NCBI GenBank assembly: GCA_049322915.1 | Contig: JBMOPW010000033.1 | Location: forward strand, 1-62,369 | Source of the DNA: Candidatus Zhuqueibacterota bacterium | GTDB lineage: Bacteria > Zhuqueibacterota > Zhuqueibacteria > Thermofontimicrobiales > Thermofontimicrobiaceae | Length of the DNA: 62,369 nucleotides | Direction of reading: 5' to 3' | Shown here: positions 49,192 through 62,369 of the stretch, in pieces | Layout of the letters: the number at the start of each line of letters is the position of its first letter | Position numbering within the stretch: the first letter of the stretch is position 1 | Made by a program: the position numbers and the translations under genes | Notes under the pieces: model-generated | Database searches by the model: none | What the model saw: the letters and a program-made list of their open reading frames with translations, nothing else | What the model was told of the DNA's origin: nothing

Positions 49192-49680
49192 ATGAATATT
49201 TTTGAATTCGCGATGAAAATGGAAAAAGACGGTGAGGCCTATTACCGGGAATTGGCTGAGAAAACAACCCATACCGGTCTGAAGAATATTTTGAATCTTC
49301 TGGCCAATGAAGAAGTGAAGCATTATGAAGTCCTCAACAAGCTTAGCAAGCAGGAATCAAATCTGAAGATGGCGGAAACGCATATTCTGGCGGATGCTAA
49401 AAATGTCTTTGTGCAGATGAAAGAGCAGGGCAGCACGTTCGATCTGAAAATGCCTCAGCCTGAATTCTATGAAAAGGCCAGAGAGATAGAAGAAAAGAGC
49501 TATCAGTTTTATCTGGAAAAAGCCCGTGAGGTCGAGGACGAAAGCGCCAGGAAAGTGCTTTTGAAAATCGCGGATGAAGAGAAGAAGCATATTTTCCTCA
49601 TGGAAAATTTAGTGGAGTACCTGTCGCGACCGGGCACGTGGGTGGAAAATGCTGAATTTCATAAACTGGATGAATTTTGA
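49192..49680 (+). CDS. Rubrerythrin/ferritin-like protein
   Basis: Two E..YY/FY and EE.KH motifs (EEVKH, EEKKH); CAGGAG RBS. Confidence 0.9.
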   Translation: MNIFEFAMKMEKDGEAYYRELAEKTTHTGLKNILNLLANEEVKHYEVLNKLSKQESNLKMAETHILADAKNVFVQMKEQGSTFDLKMPQPEFYEKAREIEEKSYQFYLEKAREVEDESARKVLLKIADEEKKHIFLMENLVEYLSRPGTWVENAEFHKLDEF

Positions 49681-50900: not shown

Positions 50901-50973
50901 CCAGTAATCCAGCGTGAATGACTGTGTGCATTTTTACCGAGCACAGGATACGAACGAAACGTCACGGACACTC

Positions 50974-51696
50974 ATGAAAAGACATATCCTGATAATCGCC
51001 TTGATCTTTCTCAGTAGTTGTGCCCCGAATTTTACACATATTAAACGAGGAGAAACGGAATACATGTTGGAAAAAGAAATTCGCGGCGATGTTGTGATCA
51101 AATACCTGCTCTACCTGCCGGATAACTATGAAACCTCCGAAACAGACTGGCCGATGATTTTGTTCCTGCACGGCGCTGGCGAACGCGGGGCAAATCTCAA
51201 AAAAGTGAAGCTGCACGGCCCACCGAAACGCATCGAAGAAGGCAAAAAAATTCCATTCATCATCGTTGCACCCCAATGTCCATCAAACCAGCGGTGGTCA
51301 GTCAGCAATCTGGACAAACTGCTGGGCGTCATCACTGAAAATTATCGCGTCGATGAAAATCGTATCTATCTCACCGGGTTGAGCATGGGCGGCTATGGCA
51401 CCTGGGACCTGGCCATGGAGTATCCCAATCGGTTTGCGGCGATCGCTCCGATTTGCGGCGCCGGCGACACGTCGCGCGCGCACGTGTTGAAAGACATGCC
51501 GATCTGGGTGTTCCACGGCGCCAAAGACGATATTGTGCCACTTCAAAAATCCCAGGATATGGTCGACGCGCTGAAGACAGTCGGTTCTGACGTAAAGTTC
51601 ACCATCTATCGCACGGCCGGACATGATTCATGGACCAGGACATACAAGAGTTCCGCCCTGTACAAATGGTTTTTGGAGCATTCGCTGAACAAATGA
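50974..51696 (+). CDS. Alpha/beta-hydrolase lipoprotein (esterase/peptidase-like)
   Basis: Lipobox LSSC, FLHGAGERG, GLSMGG nucleophile, FHGAKDD, GHDSW. Confidence 0.9.
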   Translation: MKRHILIIALIFLSSCAPNFTHIKRGETEYMLEKEIRGDVVIKYLLYLPDNYETSETDWPMILFLHGAGERGANLKKVKLHGPPKRIEEGKKIPFIIVAPQCPSNQRWSVSNLDKLLGVITENYRVDENRIYLTGLSMGGYGTWDLAMEYPNRFAAIAPICGAGDTSRAHVLKDMPIWVFHGAKDDIVPLQKSQDMVDALKTVGSDVKFTIYRTAGHDSWTRTYKSSALYKWFLEHSLNK

Positions 51697-51836
51697 ATGC
51701 GCTCCTTCCTGATGGCGGGCTGTTTCAGCCGGGAAGCGGGCCATTTGTCGTTACGAAAAAAAATTGAATTTAACACATCTCCGACATTGCATCCGCGGGA
51801 GTCGTCATCGAATAAATGAACGAGGAGAAAAGATAT

Positions 51837-52910
51837 ATGCAGTTACCGGGAAAATTTATGGCCACTGGCATCGGCAGCATGCCGTTCACCGATGTGGACC
51901 ATGCGATTGATGTGTCGCTGACTCGATTCCCTGAAGCGCCATTCTGGCCGCAACTGCCCAGGCTGGATCTGAACGAGCAGATGGAAATTCAGTATTCCGA
52001 AGGGATGCCGTGCGTCGTCATTGACAGGGAAAAGCGGCGCATGAATTTCGATACCTCCGGCGATTATTCCGACGCCTTCGCTGCATTTTATGAAGCGTAT
52101 ATTCTGGCCATGGATGCCGATGAAGGCAGCGGCGATTGTTCCGCGCTGGCGATTCGCCCTGAGTTTTCGAAAGGCATCTACGCCTTTGAGAAGAAGCTGA
52201 GCGCGCGGGGAGGGAAGCTGCCGTTCGTCAAAGTGCAAACGACCGGGCCGTGCAGTTTTGCGCTGACCATTGTCGATGAGAATAAGCGCGCTATTTATTA
52301 CAACGAAGAATTTCGCGATGTGGTCATCAAAGCGCTGGCCATGAAATGCCGCTGGCAGATACAAAAATTCCAGCCATTTGCGGACAGGGTCATTTGTTTC
52401 ATCGACGAGCCGATTCTGTCCGGCTTCGGCAGTTCCACCTACGTCTCTGTGAAGCGGGAGAACGTTGTAGCCCATCTGGCCGAGGTCATCGACGCGGTGC
52501 ACGCGGATCATGGCATGGCCGGCATTCACTGCTGCGGCAACACCGAGTGGAGCATCCTCATCGACGCCGGGGTGGATATTGTCAATTTCGATGCGTTCGA
52601 ATTCGGCGAGACCATTGCCATGTACCCGGACGCGGTGAAGCGGCATCTCAATCGCGGCGGGTTTCTGGCCTGGGGCATTGTCCCAACCTCGGCGGCGATT
52701 CGGCAGCAGTCCGTGGAGACTCTGTCTGTTTTATTCGAAAAGATGATGGATCATCTGGCTGCAAAGGGGATAAGCAAAGAGCTCATTGTAGAGCATGCGC
52801 TCATCACTCCATCCTGCGGCACCGGCTCTTTGGAACCGGCCGATGCGGAGAAGGTGTTCGAGTTGACTCAGGGGTTGTCCGCGTTCATGCGCAAGAAGTA
52901 CGCTTTTTAA
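51837..52910 (+). CDS. Core-MetE-type (MesB-like) methionine synthase
   Basis: TGIGSMP, FWPQLP, VKVQTTGP, IDEP, Zn ligands in IHCCG and TPSCG; single-barrel length; GAGGAG RBS. Confidence 0.78.
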   Translation: MQLPGKFMATGIGSMPFTDVDHAIDVSLTRFPEAPFWPQLPRLDLNEQMEIQYSEGMPCVVIDREKRRMNFDTSGDYSDAFAAFYEAYILAMDADEGSGDCSALAIRPEFSKGIYAFEKKLSARGGKLPFVKVQTTGPCSFALTIVDENKRAIYYNEEFRDVVIKALAMKCRWQIQKFQPFADRVICFIDEPILSGFGSSTYVSVKRENVVAHLAEVIDAVHADHGMAGIHCCGNTEWSILIDAGVDIVNFDAFEFGETIAMYPDAVKRHLNRGGFLAWGIVPTSAAIRQQSVETLSVLFEKMMDHLAAKGISKELIVEHALITPSCGTGSLEPADAEKVFELTQGLSAFMRKKYAF

Positions 52911-53011: not shown

Positions 53012-53803
53012 ATGAAACTGGCAATTTCTGGAAAAGGCGGTGTTGGCAAAACCACGCTGGCAGCGGCGCTGTCGCTCCTGTTAGTCCGGCGCGGTCATAA
53101 AGTGCTGGCGCTGGACGCGGACCCTGATGCAAATTTGGCCTCGGCGCTGGGCCTGTCGGCGGAACAACAGGCGCAAATCGTCCCCATCTCCCGGCAGGTG
53201 GCGCTCATCGAAGCGCGCACCGGCGCCAAAGTGAAACAATACGGTCAGATTTTCAAGCTGAACCCGGAGGTGTCCGACATTGCCGGCAGCTATGCTGTGA
53301 CCCATCGCGGAGTGAATCTGTTAGTCCTGGGCGCTGTGCAACAGGGCGGCGGCGGTTGCGCCTGTCCGGAGAATATCCTGATCAAAGCGCTTGTGACCGA
53401 TCTGGTGCTTTTTAAAAATGAAACCCTGATCATGGACATGGAAGCCGGCATCGAGCATCTGGGCCGGGGAACAGCGCGCGGCGTGGATTCCCTGCTCATT
53501 GTGCTGGAGCCTGGTCTCAGTTCTGTGGAAAGCACGCGGCGCATCATGAATCTGGCCGCCGAGATCGGATTGAAGGACATTCGGCTCGTCGCCAACAAAG
53601 TCGCCGGCCAGCGCGACGAGGAGTTCATTCGGCGCGCTTTTCCGGACGCATCCATCCTGGGCTTCATTCCCTACACATCTGAAATTCGCGAGGCAGACCG
53701 GCCCGGGGCCACGCTGCTGGATTCCATCCGCCCCGAACTGCTATCGATTTTCGAAACCATCCTCAATCGGCTGGACTCCTCCGAAAAGGTCGGGAATCCA
53801 TGA
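53012..53803 (+). CDS. cooC: CooC/AcsF nickel-insertion ATPase
   Basis: SGKGGVGKTT, DADPDANL, GCAC (CxC), DMEAGIEHLGRG. Confidence 0.9.
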   Translation: MKLAISGKGGVGKTTLAAALSLLLVRRGHKVLALDADPDANLASALGLSAEQQAQIVPISRQVALIEARTGAKVKQYGQIFKLNPEVSDIAGSYAVTHRGVNLLVLGAVQQGGGGCACPENILIKALVTDLVLFKNETLIMDMEAGIEHLGRGTARGVDSLLIVLEPGLSSVESTRRIMNLAAEIGLKDIRLVANKVAGQRDEEFIRRAFPDASILGFIPYTSEIREADRPGATLLDSIRPELLSIFETILNRLDSSEKVGNP

Positions 53804-54614: not shown

Positions 54615-56564
54615 ATGCCCCACGTACCGAAACCCATCGAAGAAAAGGTATGGGATGCTGCATCGGTTGAAATTCTGAAAAAAGCCGACCGTGAAAACAT
54701 CAGCACATGCTTCACCCGCATGGAAGCGCATCAGGCCCGGTGCGCTTTTGGGGTGAATGGCGTCTGCTGTCGGATTTGTCACATGGGCCCGTGCCGTATC
54801 AGCAAAAAAGCGCCGCGCGGCGTCTGCGGCGCAGATGCGGACACCATCGTCGCCCGAAACTTCCTGCGCGAGGTGGTCGGCGGCGCAGCAGCCCATTCGG
54901 ATCACGGCCGGCATCTTGTGTTGCTGCTGAAAAAAGCGGCCCGGGGCCATGGCGGCGATTATCGGATTCGGGACGAAAAGGCGCTGCGTCGCATCGCGCT
55001 TCAGTATGACATCGAACTGGATGGAAAGTCCACTGAACAGATCGCGCTGGAACTTGCGCAATTATTTCTGAATGAATTCACCGTGCAGGAAGAACCGCTG
55101 CTCACCCTGCGACTGTCGCCGGTGAAGCAACAAAGTCTCTGGAAAAGTCACAGCGTGGAACCGACCGGCATCGACCGCATGATTGTGGAGTCCATGCACC
55201 GCACGCACATGGGCGTGGATCACGACTACCGCAACCTGCTGCTGCAATCGTTTCGCACGTCTCTTTCCGACGGCTGGGGCGGTTCGCGCATTGCCTCGGC
55301 TGTCTCGGATATCCTTTTCGGCACACCCTCGCCGGTGCGCAGCCAGGCCAATCTTGGTGTGCTGGGCGAAAAGACGGTCAACATTGTGGTGCACGGCCAC
55401 GAGCCGGAACTTTCCGAGATGTTGGCCATTGCGGTTCAAATGCCGGAAATCAGGGACTATGCACAAAGCGCCGGCGCCGAGGGCGTCACCCTGGCCGGAA
55501 TTTGCTGCACTGCAAATGAAATTCTCATGCGCCACGGCATTCCCATTGCCGGCAATTTTCTGCAACAGGAACTGGCCGTGATCACCGGCGCTGTGGAAAT
55601 GATGCTCATCGATGTGCAATGCTGCATGCCCAGCCTGCCCGAGGTTGCATCCGCGTATCACACTGAAATTGTTTCGACAACGGATATTGCCAAAACCATT
55701 GGCGCCACGCATATTTCATTCGACGAAAATCACGCCCTGCAATCCGCAAAAAATCTCATCTTACGAGCCATTGATAATTTCAAAAATCGCGATCCCAAAA
55801 AAGTCGCCATTCCCTCAGCCAAAAATCCCATGGTCGCCGGCTTCAGCGTGGAGGCCATCAAATACATGCTGGGCGGCAGTTTTCGGGCGTCGTTCCGGCC
55901 GCTCAACGATGCGATCATCCAGGGCCGCATTCAGGGAGTGGTGGGAATCGTTGGCTGCAACAATCCCCGTAGCCGACTGGACGCCTACATCAACGTGCTG
56001 ACGCGCGAGCTGATCCAAAATAATATTCTTGTACTGAAAACCGGCTGCGCCGCCATCGCTTCGGCCAAAGAGGGCATGCTGACGCCGGAGGCTGCGCTGG
56101 AAGTGGCCGGGCACGGGCTGCGCGAAGTCTGCGAGGCCGTCGGTATTCCGCCGATCCTGCACATGGGCAGTTGCGTGGACAACTCGCGAATTCTGGAAGC
56201 CGGTGCCGAGATTGTGATGGAAGGCGGTCTGGGCGATGACCTGTCCCAGATTCCGGCTGTGGGCGTTGCGCCTGAATGGATGAGCGAGAAGGCCGTCTCC
56301 ATTGGGTGCTATTTTGTCGCTTCCGGCATCGATGTGATTCTGGGACATCCGTTTCACATCGCCGGATCGGAGAACGTCACGCGATTTTTGAACGAAGAAG
56401 CGAAAGAGATTTTCGGCGGCTCATTTCACGTGTGCGAAGATCCTCAGACTGCTGCCCTGAAAATTTTGGAACTGATTCACGGGAAACGCGAACGGTTGGG
56501 AATCAACAAAAAGACGGAGCGGAAACTGTACGATATGAAGGACAGGAGAGAACTGGTTGTCTAA
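54615..56564 (+). CDS. cooS: Anaerobic Ni-CO dehydrogenase catalytic subunit
   Basis: D/B-cluster CAFGVNGVCCRICHMGPC...VCG; C-cluster motifs HGHEP, CCTANE, DVQC, GCNN, TGCA, GSCVDN; SEKA. Confidence 0.97.
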   Translation: MPHVPKPIEEKVWDAASVEILKKADRENISTCFTRMEAHQARCAFGVNGVCCRICHMGPCRISKKAPRGVCGADADTIVARNFLREVVGGAAAHSDHGRHLVLLLKKAARGHGGDYRIRDEKALRRIALQYDIELDGKSTEQIALELAQLFLNEFTVQEEPLLTLRLSPVKQQSLWKSHSVEPTGIDRMIVESMHRTHMGVDHDYRNLLLQSFRTSLSDGWGGSRIASAVSDILFGTPSPVRSQANLGVLGEKTVNIVVHGHEPELSEMLAIAVQMPEIRDYAQSAGAEGVTLAGICCTANEILMRHGIPIAGNFLQQELAVITGAVEMMLIDVQCCMPSLPEVASAYHTEIVSTTDIAKTIGATHISFDENHALQSAKNLILRAIDNFKNRDPKKVAIPSAKNPMVAGFSVEAIKYMLGGSFRASFRPLNDAIIQGRIQGVVGIVGCNNPRSRLDAYINVLTRELIQNNILVLKTGCAAIASAKEGMLTPEAALEVAGHGLREVCEAVGIPPILHMGSCVDNSRILEAGAEIVMEGGLGDDLSQIPAVGVAPEWMSEKAVSIGCYFVASGIDVILGHPFHIAGSENVTRFLNEEAKEIFGGSFHVCEDPQTAALKILELIHGKRERLGINKKTERKLYDMKDRRELVV

Positions 56565-59500
56565 GATCATTTGCAGCAACGCCATCGACGGCGCTGTGAA
56601 CTGGGTCGCCCGCGCCGAGGCCAAGCTGAACGAGGCGATTCAACTCAACGGGGAGACCTCAGAAGTCGGTTTTCCGGATACGGCCTATTACCTGCCTATC
56701 ATCTATTCGTTCACCGGGGAGAAAGTGCATCACCTGGGTGACCTGCGCGCGATTCTCAGACGCGCCAAAGAATTACTGCCGTCGCGGCCTTCGGAGTCCG
56801 TCTGGCTGCCGTATCTGGGCAACACGCTGGACGCCGGAGTGGCTGCGCTGTTCGCCTGCGAAATCATCGAAGCCTGCAAATACGTCATCGGCCCGACGCC
56901 TGTGGATGGCATCTGGCTGGGCGCTGCCAGCGATGTGATCATGCGCGAGCGGGGCATCGAGTTCGTCGATGGCACTGCGCCGGGATTCGCCGCCATCACC
57001 GGGGCCGCGCCTGACAGCGACGTCGCTGTGAAAATCGCGCGCGAATTGCAGGAGAAGAATCTCTACGTGTTCATGGCTGGAACCACGGACGGCACGCAGT
57101 TCGCTGAGCAGTTGTCCGGGAAGGGCGTACAGCTCGGTTGGGAGACGCGGCTGGTGCCATTCGGCCGGGACGTGTCCGCGCTGGTCTACGCGCTGGGATT
57201 CGCCAATCGCGCTGCTCTCTCGTTCGGCGGCGTCAAGCCGGGGGACTATGCCGCGAATCTGCGCTACAACAAAAACCGGATTTTCGCCTTTGTGCTGGCC
57301 TTCGGCGAAGTGACGCCGGAGAAATATGCTGCTGCTGCCGGGGCGATCAATTACGGATTCCCGGTCCTGGCCGATACCGACATTCCCCAGATTTTACCCA
57401 CCGGCGTGTGCACCTACGAGCATGTGGTCTCCCAGGTGCCCTATGAAACCATGGTCGAAAAAGCGCTGGAAGTGCGCGGCTGCAAAGTGAAAATCACGCG
57501 CGTGCCCATCCCTGTGGCTTACGGCCCGGCGTTCGAAGGGGAGCGCATTCGCAAGGCAGATACCCACGTGGAATTCGGCGGCAACATCACCACAGCGTTC
57601 GAATTTGTCACCACGGCGGAACTGGATCAGATCAATGACGGCGACATTCAGATCATCGGGCCGGACATCGATACGGTAGCGCCGGGGAGCGCGCTGCCTC
57701 TTGCCATCTGGGTCGAGGTGGCTGGCAGAAAAATGCAGACCGATTTCGAACCGATACTGGAACGGCAGATTCATCATTTGATCAATGGCGCCGAAGGCAT
57801 CTGGCACATGGGCCAGCGCGATATTGTATGGACGCGCGTTTCAAAAAGCGGGTTCGACCGGGGACTTCGGCTCAGGCATTACGGCGAAATTCTTCACGCC
57901 AAATTGCTTTCCGATTACCCGGCCATTGTTGATAAGGTCAAAGTCACCCTCATCACCGAGAAGGCCGAAGTCGACGCCCGCGTGAAAATCGCCCGCAAAG
58001 TGTACGATGAGCGCAACCGCCGGCTGGAGGCCATGACCGATGAATCGGTGGAGACGTTCTATTCCTGCCTGCTCTGCCAATCCTTCGCGCCAAATCATGT
58101 CTGCATCATCACACCGGAGCGGCTGGGACTCTGCGGCGCGTACAACTGGCTGGACGGCAAGGCCGCCTACGAAATCGACGAGACCGGTCCCAATCAGCCG
58201 GTGAAGAAGGGCGAGTGCATCGATCCGGTCAAAGGCGTGTGGCAGGGAATTGACGATTACGTCTATCTCAACAGCCACAAGACGGTGACCAGTTTCAGCG
58301 CCTATTCCATCATGGATCGGCCCATGACCAGTTGCGGCTGTTTTGAAGTCATCTGCGCCTACGTGCCGGAATGCAACGGCATCATGGCCGTGAACCGCGA
58401 ATTTTTGGGGGACACGCCGGTGGGAATGACCTTTTCCACCCTGGCCGGCAGTGTTGGCGGCGGGCAGCAGACGCCCGGTTTTATGGGCTGCGGCAAAGTA
58501 TTCCTCACGTCGCGGAAATTTCTCTTCGCCGAGGGCGGTTACCGACGGTTGGTCTGGATGACGAAAGATTTGAAAATCCTTCTGGCCGACGATCTCAACA
58601 AGCGCTTTGCTGAACAGGGCGTCCCTGATCTGCTGGAAAAAATCTGCGATGAGACCATCGCCACGGAGGGTCACGCCATTCTCGAACATCTGAAAAAGGT
58701 CGCGCACCCGGCGCTGGAGATGGAGGACATGGGCCATTTCGCTGAATCGGGCCGCGTCGCTCCGCCAGATGCGCCGACGGCTCAGACTGTGGTCGCGGGG
58801 ATTCCGCCGGCGAAGGAAGAAGTGGCGTCGGGCAATGGAAGAGGCAGCGCCATTGTCGCGGCTGATGTGATCGAAAAAATGAAGCGCGAGGTGACGGCTG
58901 AAATTACGAAGGAGCTGAAGGCGACCATCACGCGGGACGTGGTCCAGGAGATCATCCGCACGTTGAGCCATAAATTTTTGGGCGAAGACATCGCCAGTGT
59001 CAAACAGGCTGAATCGGAACCGGATGGTGCAGCGCTTGTTGTTCCCGGCAGGGCATCTGTCGAAGAAAAACCTGTTGCGCCGGCGCCGGCCCGGCCAACA
59101 GCAGCGGATCGACTTGCCGGCATCACGACGTTCGAAATCCGCAAAGAACGCTGCGAAGTCCCAATCTGGTCGGTGAAGCTGGGCGCGACAAAAGCCGAAG
59201 GTGGAACGCGGGGGCGCACCTGCGTGGTCGGAGGCGCAACGTGCATGCCATTCCATCTCTGGGAGGGCGCCATGCCCCACCGGCCGGTCGTGGCCATGGA
59301 AGTGTTCGACGTGGTGAGCGAAAAATACCCGGCTGCTCTCCGAAAAATCTATGGCGCCGTGCTGAATCACCCGGCAGAGATGGCAAAAGCCTGCGTTGAA
59401 AAGTTTGGCGCTGATCTCATCAGCGTCCGGTTGGAGGCCACGCATCCGGAAAAGGGCAATCGCTCGCCGGAACAGGCGGTGCAGGTGGTGAAATCGGTGC

Positions 59501-60093
59501 TGGCCGCTGTGGATGTGCCGCTCATCGTGACCGGCCACAGCCATTTTGATCGCAACAACGATGTCATGAAGGCCGTGGCGCAGGCCTGCGCCGGAGAGAA
59601 TTTACTACTCAACTGGGTGGAGCAGGATAATTACCGAACTATTGCCGGGGCGGCGCTGGCCTATGGCCACGCCATTGTCGCGCAGAGTCCCATCGATGTG
59701 AACATTGCCAAACAGATGAATATTTTGCTGACGAATATGGATGTGAAGCCGGTGCACATTGTGATGGACCCCATGACCGGGGCCATGGGCTATGGGATTG
59801 AATACACGTATTCGGTGATGGAGCGCATCCGGCTGACTGCGCTCAACGGGGACGCCATGCTGGCCGGGCCGTTGATTGTTTCCCCGGGACAGGAATGCGC
59901 CAAGATCAAAGAGCTGAAGGCGGGCGAGGCGGAATTCCCGGCATGGGGCGACCTGGATAAACGGGCAGCGCTGTGGGAACTGGCCACAGCGGTAAATTTG
60001 CTCTACGCCGGCGCGGATATTCTGATCCTCTATCACCCGGAAGCGGTCAAAGCGTTGAAGCGGACAATCGATCAATTGATGGGAGGCAGCTAA
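56557..60093 (+). CDS. acsB: Acetyl-CoA synthase (AcsB) fused to corrinoid Fe-S protein small subunit (AcsD)
   Basis: FPDTAYYLP, A-cluster CLLCQSFAPNHVC...LCG and TSCGCFE; after about aa 859 AcsD motifs LGATKAEGGTR, SPIDVNIAKQ, MDP...GYGIEY.YSVMERIR; TTG start with AGGAG RBS. Confidence 0.93.
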   Translation: MSKIICSNAIDGAVNWVARAEAKLNEAIQLNGETSEVGFPDTAYYLPIIYSFTGEKVHHLGDLRAILRRAKELLPSRPSESVWLPYLGNTLDAGVAALFACEIIEACKYVIGPTPVDGIWLGAASDVIMRERGIEFVDGTAPGFAAITGAAPDSDVAVKIARELQEKNLYVFMAGTTDGTQFAEQLSGKGVQLGWETRLVPFGRDVSALVYALGFANRAALSFGGVKPGDYAANLRYNKNRIFAFVLAFGEVTPEKYAAAAGAINYGFPVLADTDIPQILPTGVCTYEHVVSQVPYETMVEKALEVRGCKVKITRVPIPVAYGPAFEGERIRKADTHVEFGGNITTAFEFVTTAELDQINDGDIQIIGPDIDTVAPGSALPLAIWVEVAGRKMQTDFEPILERQIHHLINGAEGIWHMGQRDIVWTRVSKSGFDRGLRLRHYGEILHAKLLSDYPAIVDKVKVTLITEKAEVDARVKIARKVYDERNRRLEAMTDESVETFYSCLLCQSFAPNHVCIITPERLGLCGAYNWLDGKAAYEIDETGPNQPVKKGECIDPVKGVWQGIDDYVYLNSHKTVTSFSAYSIMDRPMTSCGCFEVICAYVPECNGIMAVNREFLGDTPVGMTFSTLAGSVGGGQQTPGFMGCGKVFLTSRKFLFAEGGYRRLVWMTKDLKILLADDLNKRFAEQGVPDLLEKICDETIATEGHAILEHLKKVAHPALEMEDMGHFAESGRVAPPDAPTAQTVVAGIPPAKEEVASGNGRGSAIVAADVIEKMKREVTAEITKELKATITRDVVQEIIRTLSHKFLGEDIASVKQAESEPDGAALVVPGRASVEEKPVAPAPARPTAADRLAGITTFEIRKERCEVPIWSVKLGATKAEGGTRGRTCVVGGATCMPFHLWEGAMPHRPVVAMEVFDVVSEKYPAALRKIYGAVLNHPAEMAKACVEKFGADLISVRLEATHPEKGNRSPEQAVQVVKSVLAAVDVPLIVTGHSHFDRNNDVMKAVAQACAGENLLLNWVEQDNYRTIAGAALAYGHAIVAQSPIDVNIAKQMNILLTNMDVKPVHIVMDPMTGAMGYGIEYTYSVMERIRLTALNGDAMLAGPLIVSPGQECAKIKELKAGEAEFPAWGDLDKRAALWELATAVNLLYAGADILILYHPEAVKALKRTIDQLMGGS

Positions 60094-60111: not shown

Positions 60112-60222
60112 GAAAAGAATAACACTAAATTAAGATGGATACCGTTCGTTCGGGATATTCAACCCGAAGAAGTGAATTTGGCAACAAGAACAAAGAGAAA
60201 ATATTCGTGGGAGAAAACTGAA

Positions 60223-60822
60223 ATGAAAAAATCAGGCTTAACCCATAGCGCTGTTTTTAATGATGAGCATTTCGCGCTGAATTACGCCCGGAAGCATCAG
60301 AGCATGGCCGTCAAGTTCAGTCGTGATTACGCGAAGAAATTGACTGAGCGCGGTTTCACCGGCGGCCGAATTCTGGATGACGGCTGCGGTTTCGGGCGCA
60401 CGGCCGTGAACCTCGCGGCATCATTTCCGGAGAGTCAGGTGTACGGCATCGATCTGTCGGACATCCTTTTGAATCTGGCGCGACAGTCAGCCAGTGCGGA
60501 GCATCTCGCGGATCGCGTCACATTCACCAAGGCTGACGTGCTGGCCATTCCGTTCGAAGATCGCTATTTCGATGCCGTGCTGAATGTGAACATGCTGCAT
60601 CTGGTGAATGATCCGGTGAAAATGCTGAATGAAATCCAACGCGTCACCAAACCCGGCGGCGCTATTTTCATCGCTGATCTGAAGCGTTCCTGGTTAGGCT
60701 TGCTGGAAGCGGAGATAAAATCGGCATGGACTCCGGAGGAGGCAAAGGGGTTTTTCTCAAAATCAAAAATCCGGCCGGGCACGTTATCAACCGATATGCT
60801 GTGGTGGCGATTTGAGGCGTGA
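60223..60822 (+). CDS. Class I SAM-dependent methyltransferase (UbiE/Methyltransf_11-like)
   Basis: ILDDGCGFG, GIDLS, ADVLAIPFEDRYFD, RVTKPGG; GGAGA RBS. Confidence 0.88.
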   Translation: MKKSGLTHSAVFNDEHFALNYARKHQSMAVKFSRDYAKKLTERGFTGGRILDDGCGFGRTAVNLAASFPESQVYGIDLSDILLNLARQSASAEHLADRVTFTKADVLAIPFEDRYFDAVLNVNMLHLVNDPVKMLNEIQRVTKPGGAIFIADLKRSWLGLLEAEIKSAWTPEEAKGFFSKSKIRPGTLSTDMLWWRFEA

Positions 60823-60884: not shown

Positions 60885-62219
60885 ATGGCGCTCACCGGTT
60901 TACAGATACAGAAATTGCTCCCCAAAACGAATTGCAAGGAATGCGGCTCCAATACCTGTCTCGCGTTTGCCATGAAACTGGCGGCGAAAAAAGCAGACCT
61001 GTCCCTCTGCCCGTACGCTTCGGAAGAGGCGAAACAGGTGCTGGGCGCGGCCAGCGAACCGCCTGTCAAAGGCATCGCGCTGGGCGCGGATAAATCGCTG
61101 TGGATTGGCGAAGAGACTGTGCTCTATCGCCACGAGAAGACCTTCGTGCATCAAACCGCGCTGGCGATCAATATCGACGACACGGATTCCCCGGACTCCA
61201 TCGCTGCGACATTGGCTGCGATCAAAGAGTATCAACTGGAACGCGTCGGGGAGACGCTGACGATCGACATGGTGGCCATCACCAACAGGAGCGGCGACGC
61301 AGATAAATTTGCAGAAGTGGCTGATCAGGCGTGGCGCAGCGTGCAAAAACCGCTGGTGCTTCGCAGCGCCGATGCTGCGTCACTGACCCGAGCGGCCCGG
61401 GCAGTGAAAGGCTCGCACAGCGTTCTGGCGTCTGCAACAGTGGAAACGGCGGAGATATTGAGTCAGGTCGCCGCCGAAACCGAACATGCGCTGGCAGTCA
61501 CGGCTCCGAATTTGAATGGCCTGGTCGAGCTGACGTCGAAACTCAAGGAGTCAGGGTTCACGGATTTGATCCTGCTGTATGAGACATTCTCGCTGGCAGA
61601 GCAATTCCAGATGAATTCCATTGCCCGGCGCGCGGCATTGAAGGATAATTTCAAATCGCTGGGTTACCCCAGTCTGCGTTTCATCGGAGAGGCCGATGCG
61701 CTGGAAACCACCGTGGCCGCTGTGAACGAAATCAGCAAGTACGGCGGGATTTGCGTGCTGCCGTCGTTCGATCCGGCGCAGCTTGCCGCGTTGATGACGC
61801 TCCGCCTCAATATTTACACGGATCCCCAGAAACCGATTCAGGTGGAGCCACGGGTCTATCCCATTGGTGAGCCGAACGAAAACTCGCCGATCTTCATCAC
61901 CACCAATTTTTCGCTGACCTATTTCATCGTCTCCGGCGAAATAGAAAACAGCGGCATCAGCGCGTGGCTTGTTGTGCCGGAGTGCGAAGGCATGAGCGTG
62001 CTCACGGCGTGGGCAGCCGGTAAATTTTCAGGCGCGTCCATCGCCAAATTCATCAAAGAAGTGGGGCTGGAATCGCTGGTGGCCACGCGGCAGGTGATCA
62101 TCCCCGGGTATGTCGCGCAAATCAGCGGCGAGCTGGAGGAAGGCCTGCCCGGCTGGAAAGTGCTTGTTGGTCCGCAGGAGGCCGGCGATCTCGAAAGTTA
62201 CATCAAGGCGCGGCTGTAA
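60885..62219 (+). CDS. acsC: Corrinoid Fe-S protein large subunit
   Basis: LPKTNCKECGSNTCLAFAM...CPY Fe-S motif, ETVLYRHEKTF, IYTDPQKP, TTNFSLTYF, SVLTAWAAGKF. Confidence 0.96.
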   Translation: MALTGLQIQKLLPKTNCKECGSNTCLAFAMKLAAKKADLSLCPYASEEAKQVLGAASEPPVKGIALGADKSLWIGEETVLYRHEKTFVHQTALAINIDDTDSPDSIAATLAAIKEYQLERVGETLTIDMVAITNRSGDADKFAEVADQAWRSVQKPLVLRSADAASLTRAARAVKGSHSVLASATVETAEILSQVAAETEHALAVTAPNLNGLVELTSKLKESGFTDLILLYETFSLAEQFQMNSIARRAALKDNFKSLGYPSLRFIGEADALETTVAAVNEISKYGGICVLPSFDPAQLAALMTLRLNIYTDPQKPIQVEPRVYPIGEPNENSPIFITTNFSLTYFIVSGEIENSGISAWLVVPECEGMSVLTAWAAGKFSGASIAKFIKEVGLESLVATRQVIIPGYVAQISGELEEGLPGWKVLVGPQEAGDLESYIKARL

Positions 62220-62319
62220 CAATCCTGATCGCGCATCATTCGGGATGAATGACCGGAACGATGGGTAATAAAAATTAAGACGCTCTGCCATAACATCATC
62301 AAAATATAAAAACTATAAA

Positions 62320-62346
62320 CGCAGAGTGCGCTGAGAACGCAGAGGA
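62320..62346. repeat. 9-nt tandem array (CGCAGAG-type)
   Basis: cgcagagtg-cgctgagaa-cgcagagga; any partner arm would lie beyond the window. Confidence 0.5.
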
Positions 62347-62369
62347 AAAAAAGAATAATTTTAAATGAT

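Follow-up and report, generated by a model that had tools for sequence, protein, structure and literature searches.

The bacterial systems of CO dehydrogenase and acetyl-CoA synthase (CODH/ACS) that serve here for comparison are those of Moorella thermoacetica, Carboxydothermus hydrogenoformans and Clostridium autoethanogenum (PDB entries 1oao, 1mjg, 1ru3, 6ytt, 9fzy-9g03, 4djd and 2h9a). In the systems studied, as all solved PDB structures confirm, the acetyl-CoA synthase AcsB and the small subunit of the corrinoid iron-sulfur protein (CFeSP), AcsD, are separate chains. In the acetyl-CoA decarbonylase/synthase of archaea (ACDS; CdhABCDE of Methanosarcina), a scaffold made of the corrinoid protein, written CoFeSP in that literature, permanently holds ACS through disordered regions at the C-terminus of CdhC and the N-terminus of CdhD, and CdhC lacks the A1 domain, according to the accessible part of a preprint (bioRxiv 10.64898/2026.07.07.736967). 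The same part of that preprint surveys ACS variants and reports other fusions, not one of AcsB with AcsD. Dehalococcoides mccartyi offers a further arrangement: an incomplete Wood-Ljungdahl pathway with MesB and without MetF and AcsE, in which MesB is predicted to take its methyl group from CoFeSP (available sections of Price et al. 2021, PMC7857596). Structural work on the Wood-Ljungdahl pathway is actively asking how the corrinoid protein shuttles between its methyl donor and the ACS A-cluster, and bacterial ACS-CFeSP complexes (PDB 9fzy-9g03) and the archaeal supercomplex (bioRxiv 10.64898/2026.07.07.736967, accessible part) were resolved only in 2025-2026. Here we analyze a gene in which AcsB and AcsD are joined in a single polypeptide. 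It lies at 56557..60093, on the forward strand like all features below, in a 62,369-nt window (the whole stretch of DNA analyzed) that corresponds to contig JBMOPW010000033.1 of a Candidatus Zhuqueibacterota bacterium (assembly GCA_049322915.1).

An earlier reading of this DNA, made from the letters and henceforth called the sequence-only reading, had proposed that one uninterrupted open reading frame (ORF) of 1,178 amino acids (aa) encodes an AcsB-AcsD fusion. The proposal is borne out. There are no internal stops across the 1,178 codons, and both parts match curated models above the cut-offs. The gene starts with a TTG that follows an AGGAGA stretch and overlaps the end of the AcsA gene by 8 nt, and the N-terminus of its product lines up with the M-S-K start of 111 homologues. 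Pfam domains are found in the order CODH_A_N (aa 21-110), CdhC (aa 318-472), ACS_CODH_B_C (aa 483-725) and CdhD (aa 883-1159). The NCBIfam model for the ACS alpha/beta subunit (NF040764, CODH_ACS_al_bet) is matched over positions 1-704 of 705 by aa 10-725, with 1041.2 bits against a cut-off of 800, and the delta subunit model (NF003376) over positions 3-312 of 313 by aa 859-1175, with 377.5 bits against a cut-off of 280. The boundaries proposed earlier (AcsB at about aa 1-725, a linker of about 135 aa, AcsD at about aa 859-1178) were correct to within a few residues; column conservation resumes at P847, which was taken as the first residue of AcsD.

The AcsB part (aa 1-725; 56557..58731), delimited by NF040764 and by alignment to PDB chains, contains the A1, A2 and A3 domains and the cysteines of the A-cluster. 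It aligns nearly end to end with solved ACS chains (for instance, query residues 8-725 to residues 23-727 of 732), with scores of 670-723 bits. The A1 domain, which docks onto CODH, is present, as indicated by the PF18537 match at aa 21-110 and by the start of the alignment to solved ACS at residue 8; models of the archaeal CdhC match the fusion at aa 318-727 only. Residues C504, C507, C516 and C526, together with C593-G594-C595, are present in the fusion and invariant in 112 aligned fusions. We take the four former cysteines to be those of the A-cluster [4Fe-4S] cube, and C593-G594-C595 to be the Ni-Ni site. The AcsD part (aa 847-1178; 59095..60090) is a TIM barrel of the CFeSP small-subunit type, recognized by NF003376 and by a conserved P-T-A-A-E/D-R at its start, and it aligns to residues 4-318 of the 323 of the Moorella small subunit (4djd_D). 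Its score with the acetogen-type model NF040759 (WLP_AcsD), 261.9 bits, falls under the cut-off of 430; hence this AcsD belongs to a subfamily other than the Moorella type. The match to NF003375 begins at position 96 of that profile. No second acsD was found in a PF03599 search over the whole genome of the organism (6.25 Mb in 45 contigs, 96% complete), whose matches were limited to AcsC, the fusion and a weakly scoring frame of the MetH type; what had been noted earlier from the window, that no separate acsD is present, thus extends to the genome.

The junction is not an artifact of assembly. A 9,744-nt Logan contig (depth 74.8), the product of another assembler and probably derived from the source sample, covers positions 58300-59500 with 0 differences and 0 gaps. 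Another contig, 1,361 nt long and derived from a diverged relative sampled in a different study, bridges positions 58575 to 59152 with 555 letters where the window has 576; since the difference is 21, the linker is bridged in frame. Two further runs (X3 and X5) reach just the conserved flanks and have no bearing on the linker. A chimeric join is untenable because the same architecture is conserved elsewhere.

The extent of that conservation was examined by comparing aa 700-1178 with 5.8 billion clustered proteins. Among 8,000 candidates scored, 1,252 related protein clusters were matched. Within the 120 matches listed, 112 (the window's own protein included) are at least 1,100 aa long and contain all four Pfam domains, the four-domain fusions measuring about 1,160-1,270 aa; in the other 8, which are 666-932 aa long, ACS_CODH_B_C is likewise joined to CdhD. 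When one genome per species was scanned, relatives numbered at least 591; hidden Markov models built from the fusion alignment then served to classify the best 80 loci. In 29 of these loci the two genes are fused in one frame, in 35 they are separate, and in 16 only AcsB is found within the locus; two loci counted as separate (L026 and L034) are fused-type genes with a frameshift.

The fused loci carry at least 13 phylum labels, and several lie on contigs of 0.5-8.6 Mb. The labels are Lentisphaerota, Planctomycetota, Bacteroidota, Bacillota, Synergistota, Thermodesulfobacteriota, Spirochaetota, Verrucomicrobiota, Hydrogenedentota, Methylomirabilota and Acidobacteriota, plus records assigned to Deltaproteobacteria/Myxococcota and to Bacteriovoracaceae. 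Within the window's own class, AcsD is found in 5 of 41 genomes, its own included. Four of the five have the fused form, in frames of 1,180-1,193 aa, and one has a split AcsD of 325 aa with 56% identity; a genome of the same genus, 94% complete, has no AcsD. Being widespread, and common among uncultured anaerobes, the fusion is no oddity of this one genome.

In a quick maximum-likelihood tree built from 58 AcsD domains, all fused AcsD sequences and four split ones group in one clade (support 99). Three groups lie inside it, which the tree leaves as a three-way fork: 4 fused rows of Acidobacteriota and NC10 that lack the linker helix described below (support 100), 4 split rows (support 99), and the main fused clade with 25 rows (support 81). 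Several nested fused lineages (L011, L017, L020 and L024) have no detectable helix. The window belongs to a subclade of 23 rows (support 99) in which phyla are thoroughly mixed. This topology indicates either one fusion followed by re-splitting or two independent fusions, and then extensive transfer of the whole module. Altogether, the fusion is real, ancient and widespread, and it forms part of a transferable gene module.

The segment that joins both halves is 121 aa long in the window (aa 726-846), and no solved PDB structure covers aa 726-859 of the fusion. Its plan is constant in the 112 fusions: a variable segment, a helix, a second variable segment and then P-T-A-A-E/D-R. Here, segment 1 comprises aa 726-766 (58732..58854) and segment 2 comprises aa 811-846 (58987..59094); low conservation and low AlphaFold2 (AF2) predicted local distance difference test (pLDDT) values characterize both as variable and disordered. 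Across the 112 fusions, segment 1 has 34-85 aa (median 44), with column identities mostly of 0.1-0.3 and many gaps, while segment 2 has 12-71 aa (median 26) and is likewise gapped and poorly conserved. Pooled, the two segments are rich in Ala, Glu and Pro.

The helix between them (aa 767-810; 58855..58986) was delimited by conservation, AF2 and profile search. Residues K776, E782, V796, I799, I800, L803, L808 and G809 are conserved in at least 90% of sequences; the strongest conservation is found in the last 18 residues, which include the C-terminal motif V-x-E-I-I-x-x-L-S-x-K-F-L-G. The hydrophobic positions 796, 799, 800, 803, 807 and 808 fall on one face, as in an amphipathic helix. An AF2 model of the full-length fusion, built with the full alignment, had a mean pLDDT of 70.8 and a predicted template modeling score (pTM) of 0.42; it predicts a single helix at 769-807 (pLDDT around 65) between stretches of pLDDT below 50 at 730-768 and 808-841. 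When a 48-position helix profile was compared with 1.84 billion representative proteins, 26 matches were obtained at E<=1e-3. Seventeen adjoin AcsB C-terminal and/or AcsD N-terminal sequence, either as fragments or as full fusions; one is a 79-aa fragment, and eight are charged proteins of repetitive sequence, each matched in several weak stretches. Hence the helix is private to this linker. An origin of the linker from the cooC that stands between acsB and acsD in the split sister clusters was considered, and inspection by eye showed no similarity. The simplest reading of the short, strongly conserved amphipathic end of the helix is that it may serve as a docking site.

The genes that accompany the fusion bear on its functional interpretation. 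Upstream, at 51816..52910, lies the gene for a 364-aa protein (X355) that AF2, Foldseek and conserved residues predict to be a MesB-like zinc methyltransferase of the MetE/MtaA fold. An X355 orthologue is present in 22 of the 29 fused loci versus 3 of the 35 split loci, and all three split loci belong to the sister group of the fusions. The AF2 model of X355 (pLDDT 92.2) resembles uroporphyrinogen decarboxylase (URO-D), MetE and the MtaA-type corrinoid methyltransferase of M. mazei in Foldseek comparisons, with E around 1e-7, template modeling (TM) scores of 0.5-0.6 and 11-16% identity. Residues H229, H238, C240 and C334 are invariant in 24 orthologues, and H238, C240 and C334 conform to the pattern of a zinc thiol-methyltransferase, in which they would act as zinc ligands.

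The usual methyl donor enzyme seems to be missing. No AcsE was found in the window's genome, where PF00809 matched dihydropteroate synthase (FolP) and MetH only, and no formyl-tetrahydrofolate synthetase (FTHFS) was found either. The AcsE model NF005719 was matched above its cut-off in none of 10 fusion-bearing genomes, which include an 8.6-Mb chromosome, versus 4 of 5 genomes with split genes; the fifth split genome, without AcsE, is an X355-bearing genome assembled from a metagenome (MAG) and belongs to the sister group. The sequence-only reading was right on the anatomy, the lack of a separate acsD and the downstream acsC; it had missed the MesB-like methyltransferase and the absence of AcsE and FTHFS, which change the functional interpretation of the locus.

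Taken as a whole, the interpretation that we favor, and consider likely, is that the fusion keeps CFeSP at ACS within a folate-independent methyl-exchange module. The product would be one polypeptide of around 130 kDa in which the C-terminus of the A3 domain of AcsB is covalently joined to the AcsD subunit of CFeSP. AcsD would in turn bind the separately encoded AcsC, which carries the B12 cofactor; hence, the whole corrinoid protein would be leashed to ACS at a 1:1 ratio. The leash would consist of two disordered stretches separated by a conserved amphipathic helix about 44 residues long. Such a tether, the natural inference already drawn in the sequence-only reading, would be expected to raise the local concentration of CFeSP at the A-cluster and to fix a 1:1 stoichiometry. 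With a median of around 70 disordered residues plus a helix of an estimated 65 Å, the arm might permit the B12 domain to swing toward other partners, so that the carrier could leave the A-cluster and visit them without diffusing away, with the helix acting perhaps as a docking element. The partners would probably not be AcsE and methyl-tetrahydrofolate; likelier candidates are X355, the PF02574 enzyme found in most relatives, and the activator RACo. Acetyl-CoA might thus trade methyl groups with homocysteine/methionine, or with some other thiol compound, and not with methyl-tetrahydrofolate.

Other explanations account for parts of these data. The merger could be neutral or regulatory: AcsB and AcsD would be made in equal amounts and assembled together, catalysis would be unaffected, and the linker would be a spacer whose helix is a structural accident kept by descent. 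This possibility, which we consider unlikely, fits the wide variation of the floppy segments (96-200 aa in total), the persistence of both split and fused forms in nature, and the existence of four lineages (L011, L017, L020 and L024) that keep the fusion without a detectable helix. It is difficult to reconcile, however, with the conservation of eight helix positions in at least 90% of 112 sequences amid a linker whose identity is only around 20-40%, an observation that indicates selection on the helix itself, and with the maintenance of the main fused clade across at least 13 phylum labels. Alternatively, the helix might be an oligomerization element whose bundles cross-link CODH/ACS-CFeSP units into a higher-order assembly. 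Its hydrophobic positions do share one face, and its location around 40 residues before the AcsD barrel recalls that of the archaeal CdhD coiled coil (residues 45-68), which stands a few tens of residues before the AcsD-aligned region (bioRxiv 10.64898/2026.07.07.736967, accessible part). Conservation is concentrated, however, near the C-terminus of the helix, in a short motif whose polar residues (T, S, K and G) are fixed, which is suggestive of a docking motif rather than a zipper, and the accessible part of the same preprint (bioRxiv 10.64898/2026.07.07.736967) describes the N-terminal region as not conserved in bacterial AcsD. Oligomerization is a quite improbable role.

Far less probable still is that the fusion is a precursor, cut within the disordered linker to release ordinary AcsB and AcsD, or that AcsD is also produced from an internal start. 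Long disordered linkers are accessible to proteases. Against processing, no conserved cleavage-like motif is seen beside the helix, save the helix itself and P-T-A-A-E-R, and it would be hard to explain why a stretch due to be removed should keep a conserved helix. Initiation of AcsD on its own is unsupported, as there is no in-frame ATG, GTG or TTG between aa 809 and 872, and V873 and M897, the first candidates beyond that interval, fall within the barrel.

Several considerations speak against the tethered, folate-independent interpretation that we prefer. The kinetic benefit of tethering would follow from an argument and is not a result. A look-up of RNA records for this stretch returned none. 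The full-length AF2 model is only moderate and yields no reliable domain arrangement. X355 matches no Pfam family at E<=1e-3, and its score with the "methionine synthase" model NF002119 (27.6 bits) is far under the cut-off of 258. A PDB sequence search with X355 gave chance matches only. The likeness of the protein to MesB lies in its predicted fold and conserved residues. The genomes searched for AcsE are mostly MAGs whose completeness is not established. One fused locus (L035) has FTHFS adjoining the cluster; hence the module is not folate-free everywhere. The window's genome also contains MetH and a gene of the homocysteine methyltransferase-methylenetetrahydrofolate reductase (HcyMT-MTHFR) type, so that it does not depend on the module for methionine. 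Lastly, DUF3786 as partner of the helix has been dropped as evidence after whole-genome searches and is a weak lead only. Among fused loci with RACo and at least 1 kb of downstream sequence, DUF3786 follows in 9 of 13 that bear the helix versus 0 of 8 that lack it. When whole genomes were searched, however, it appeared elsewhere in 2 of 5 helix-less cases and was absent in 4 of 5 helix-bearing cases lacking a local copy. A literature search for DUF3786 gave a single, unrelated match.

The gene order shared by fused loci is PF02574 homocysteine S-methyltransferase, X355, CooC, CooC, AcsA, AcsB~D, AcsC, RACo and, often, DUF3786. In the window, X355 is followed by two CooC genes, AcsA, the fusion, an extra S-adenosylmethionine (SAM) methyltransferase and AcsC, after which the contig ends. 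Both CooC genes encode P-loop ATPases of the CooC/AcsF type, to which family Ni insertion is attributed; the one at 53012..53803 matches the CbiA/ParA/MinD family and the one at 53800..54564 matches CbiA and AAA_31, and their position is conserved across fused loci. The gene at 54615..56564 encodes the Ni-CODH catalytic subunit (AcsA/CooS), with 638.6 bits for TIGR01702 against a cut-off of 478 and 554.5 bits for Prismane. As proposed earlier, acsC is a separate downstream gene (60885..62219); it encodes the CFeSP large subunit with Fe-S, TIM and B12 domains (515.4 bits for NF003195 against a cut-off of 306, and matches to PF04060 and PF03599). It lies beyond a gene that had gone unmentioned, at 60172..60822, whose product is a 216-aa class I SAM-dependent methyltransferase with matches to Methyltransf_11, Methyltransf_25 and Methyltransf_31. 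No orthologue of the latter was detected in 83 other loci, the sole outside match being at 29% identity in L045; elsewhere acsC directly follows the fusion, and the methyltransferase gene is a lineage-specific insertion. A weak likeness, below cut-off, to the NCBIfam models DVU_1556 and CpaM (corrinoid protein-associated methyltransferase) was also observed. The GC content of the acs cluster (0.56-0.59, compared with 0.49-0.59 in flanking bins) is not decisive for a foreign origin.

Additional observations concern the surroundings of the module. In the window's own genome (G000), RACo and DUF3786 genes are found at the end of a 29-kb contig (C5, around 25.8-28.5 kb; locus L090). This contig plausibly continues the window past acsC, although it shows no sequence overlap with the window end (62220-62369), and the assembly probably broke between acsC and RACo; a small repeated gene seems to be partly encoded in the terminal 250 bases of C5. 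The best PF02574 orthologue of the genome lies on another contig (C26, 92745-95533), directly upstream of a second RACo paralogue of 629 aa. In a Phycisphaerae MAG (L019, 11239-13926), RACo and DUF3786 share one 893-aa ORF, a tie between the uncharacterized DUF3786 and the activator of CFeSP. In an uncultured bacterium whose AcsB is separate (L074, 4188-7691), an AcsD-like domain forms the C-terminus (aa 861-1164) of an ORF of 1,168 aa; this ORF overlaps a match to RACo and may represent a different fusion, RACo~AcsD. Upstream of the acs module, the window carries a rubrerythrin/ferritin-like protein and an alpha/beta-hydrolase esterase (49192-49680 and 50914-51696, respectively); a similar esterase is found after RACo in a Hydrogenedentota locus (L024).

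Public annotation designates the fused proteins merely as acetyl-CoA synthase or subunit beta. No published description of an AcsB~AcsD fusion was found in full-text literature searches, most subscription journals being outside their reach. The fusion is not mentioned in the accessible parts of papers on Elusimicrobia, NPL-UPA2 and Desulfobacterota. Neither is it in the available sections of Price et al. 2021 (PMC7857596), which contain 0 occurrences of "fused" or "fusion"; a paper on Zhuqueibacterota contains 0 occurrences of "Wood-Ljungdahl". The sequence-only reading had anticipated that its proposal would lose novelty if the fusion proved widespread and already described: the former turned out to be true, and a description was not found.

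Moderately interesting by itself, the fusion gains interest as part of a folate-independent module and as a naturally tethered complex that structural studies could use. A natural tethered ACS-CFeSP would provide a ready 1:1 complex for cryo-electron microscopy and kinetics, and a natural experiment on whether proximity limits methyl transfer. The AcsE-less, MesB-linked module would also allow a test of a published, unproven idea, namely that methionine synthesis is fed by CoFeSP directly. On the practical side, pathway callers that need separate matches to AcsB, AcsD and AcsE will mis-score hundreds of genomes that have the module. A bolder speculation, which we find doubtful as it stands, is that the module might be a self-contained, folate-independent CODH/ACS/CFeSP machine: the helix would recruit the methyl-exchange enzymes or the activator, or bundle units together, and methyl groups would stay in the complex as they pass between acetyl-CoA and methionine or another thiol or thioether. 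If true, such a machine would be what the ACDS supercomplex is in archaea, here in covalent and bacterial form, and gene transfer would have carried it into more than a dozen phyla.

Comparison with described systems places the fusion as follows. Like bacterial CODH/ACS, it has an AcsB with the A1 docking domain and all A-cluster ligands, the same AcsD barrel, AcsA upstream, and AcsC, CooC and RACo within the module. Unlike them, in which the solved ACS (708-734 aa) and CFeSP small subunit (309-323 aa) are always separate chains, the fusion has a 121-aa linker with a private helix and resides in a genome without detected AcsE. The closest split relatives (L040-L043 and L053, labeled Aminicenantes, Desulfaltia and Eubacteriales) have the order acsB-cooC-acsD-acsC. 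The AcsD sequences of L041, L042, L043 and L053 belong to the same clade as the fusions (support 99), while L040, whose AcsD is cut at a contig end, is outside the tree; in L041, L043 and L053 an X355 orthologue is found upstream, as in the fused module. These relatives differ from the fusion in that cooC lies between acsB and acsD and AcsB ends exactly where the linker would start, with no linker and no helix.

The resemblance to D. mccartyi lies in the presence of ACS and CFeSP without AcsE, together with a methyltransferase of the core-MetE type proposed to use the CoFeSP methyl group (PMC7857596, available sections); the differences are that the fusion module includes CODH and that the window's genome also has MetH. 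With archaeal ACDS the fusion shares a link between ACS and the corrinoid protein by way of disordered regions, a helix before the delta-subunit barrel, a likeness by position alone, and the lack of AcsE. However, the archaeal tether is non-covalent and its CdhC has no A1 domain, whereas the fusion is held by a peptide bond and has A1 (archaeal data from the accessible part of bioRxiv 10.64898/2026.07.07.736967). The likeness to archaeal ACDS suggested by the sequence-only reading thus holds as an analogy and fails as a type, since the fusion keeps the bacterial A1 domain that CdhC lacks in the accessible archaeal data. Archaeal ACDS is the nearest functional analogue of the arrangement described here. 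Both halves of the fusion are ordinary members of their families; what is new is their covalent join, the private helix and the AcsE-less module to which they belong.

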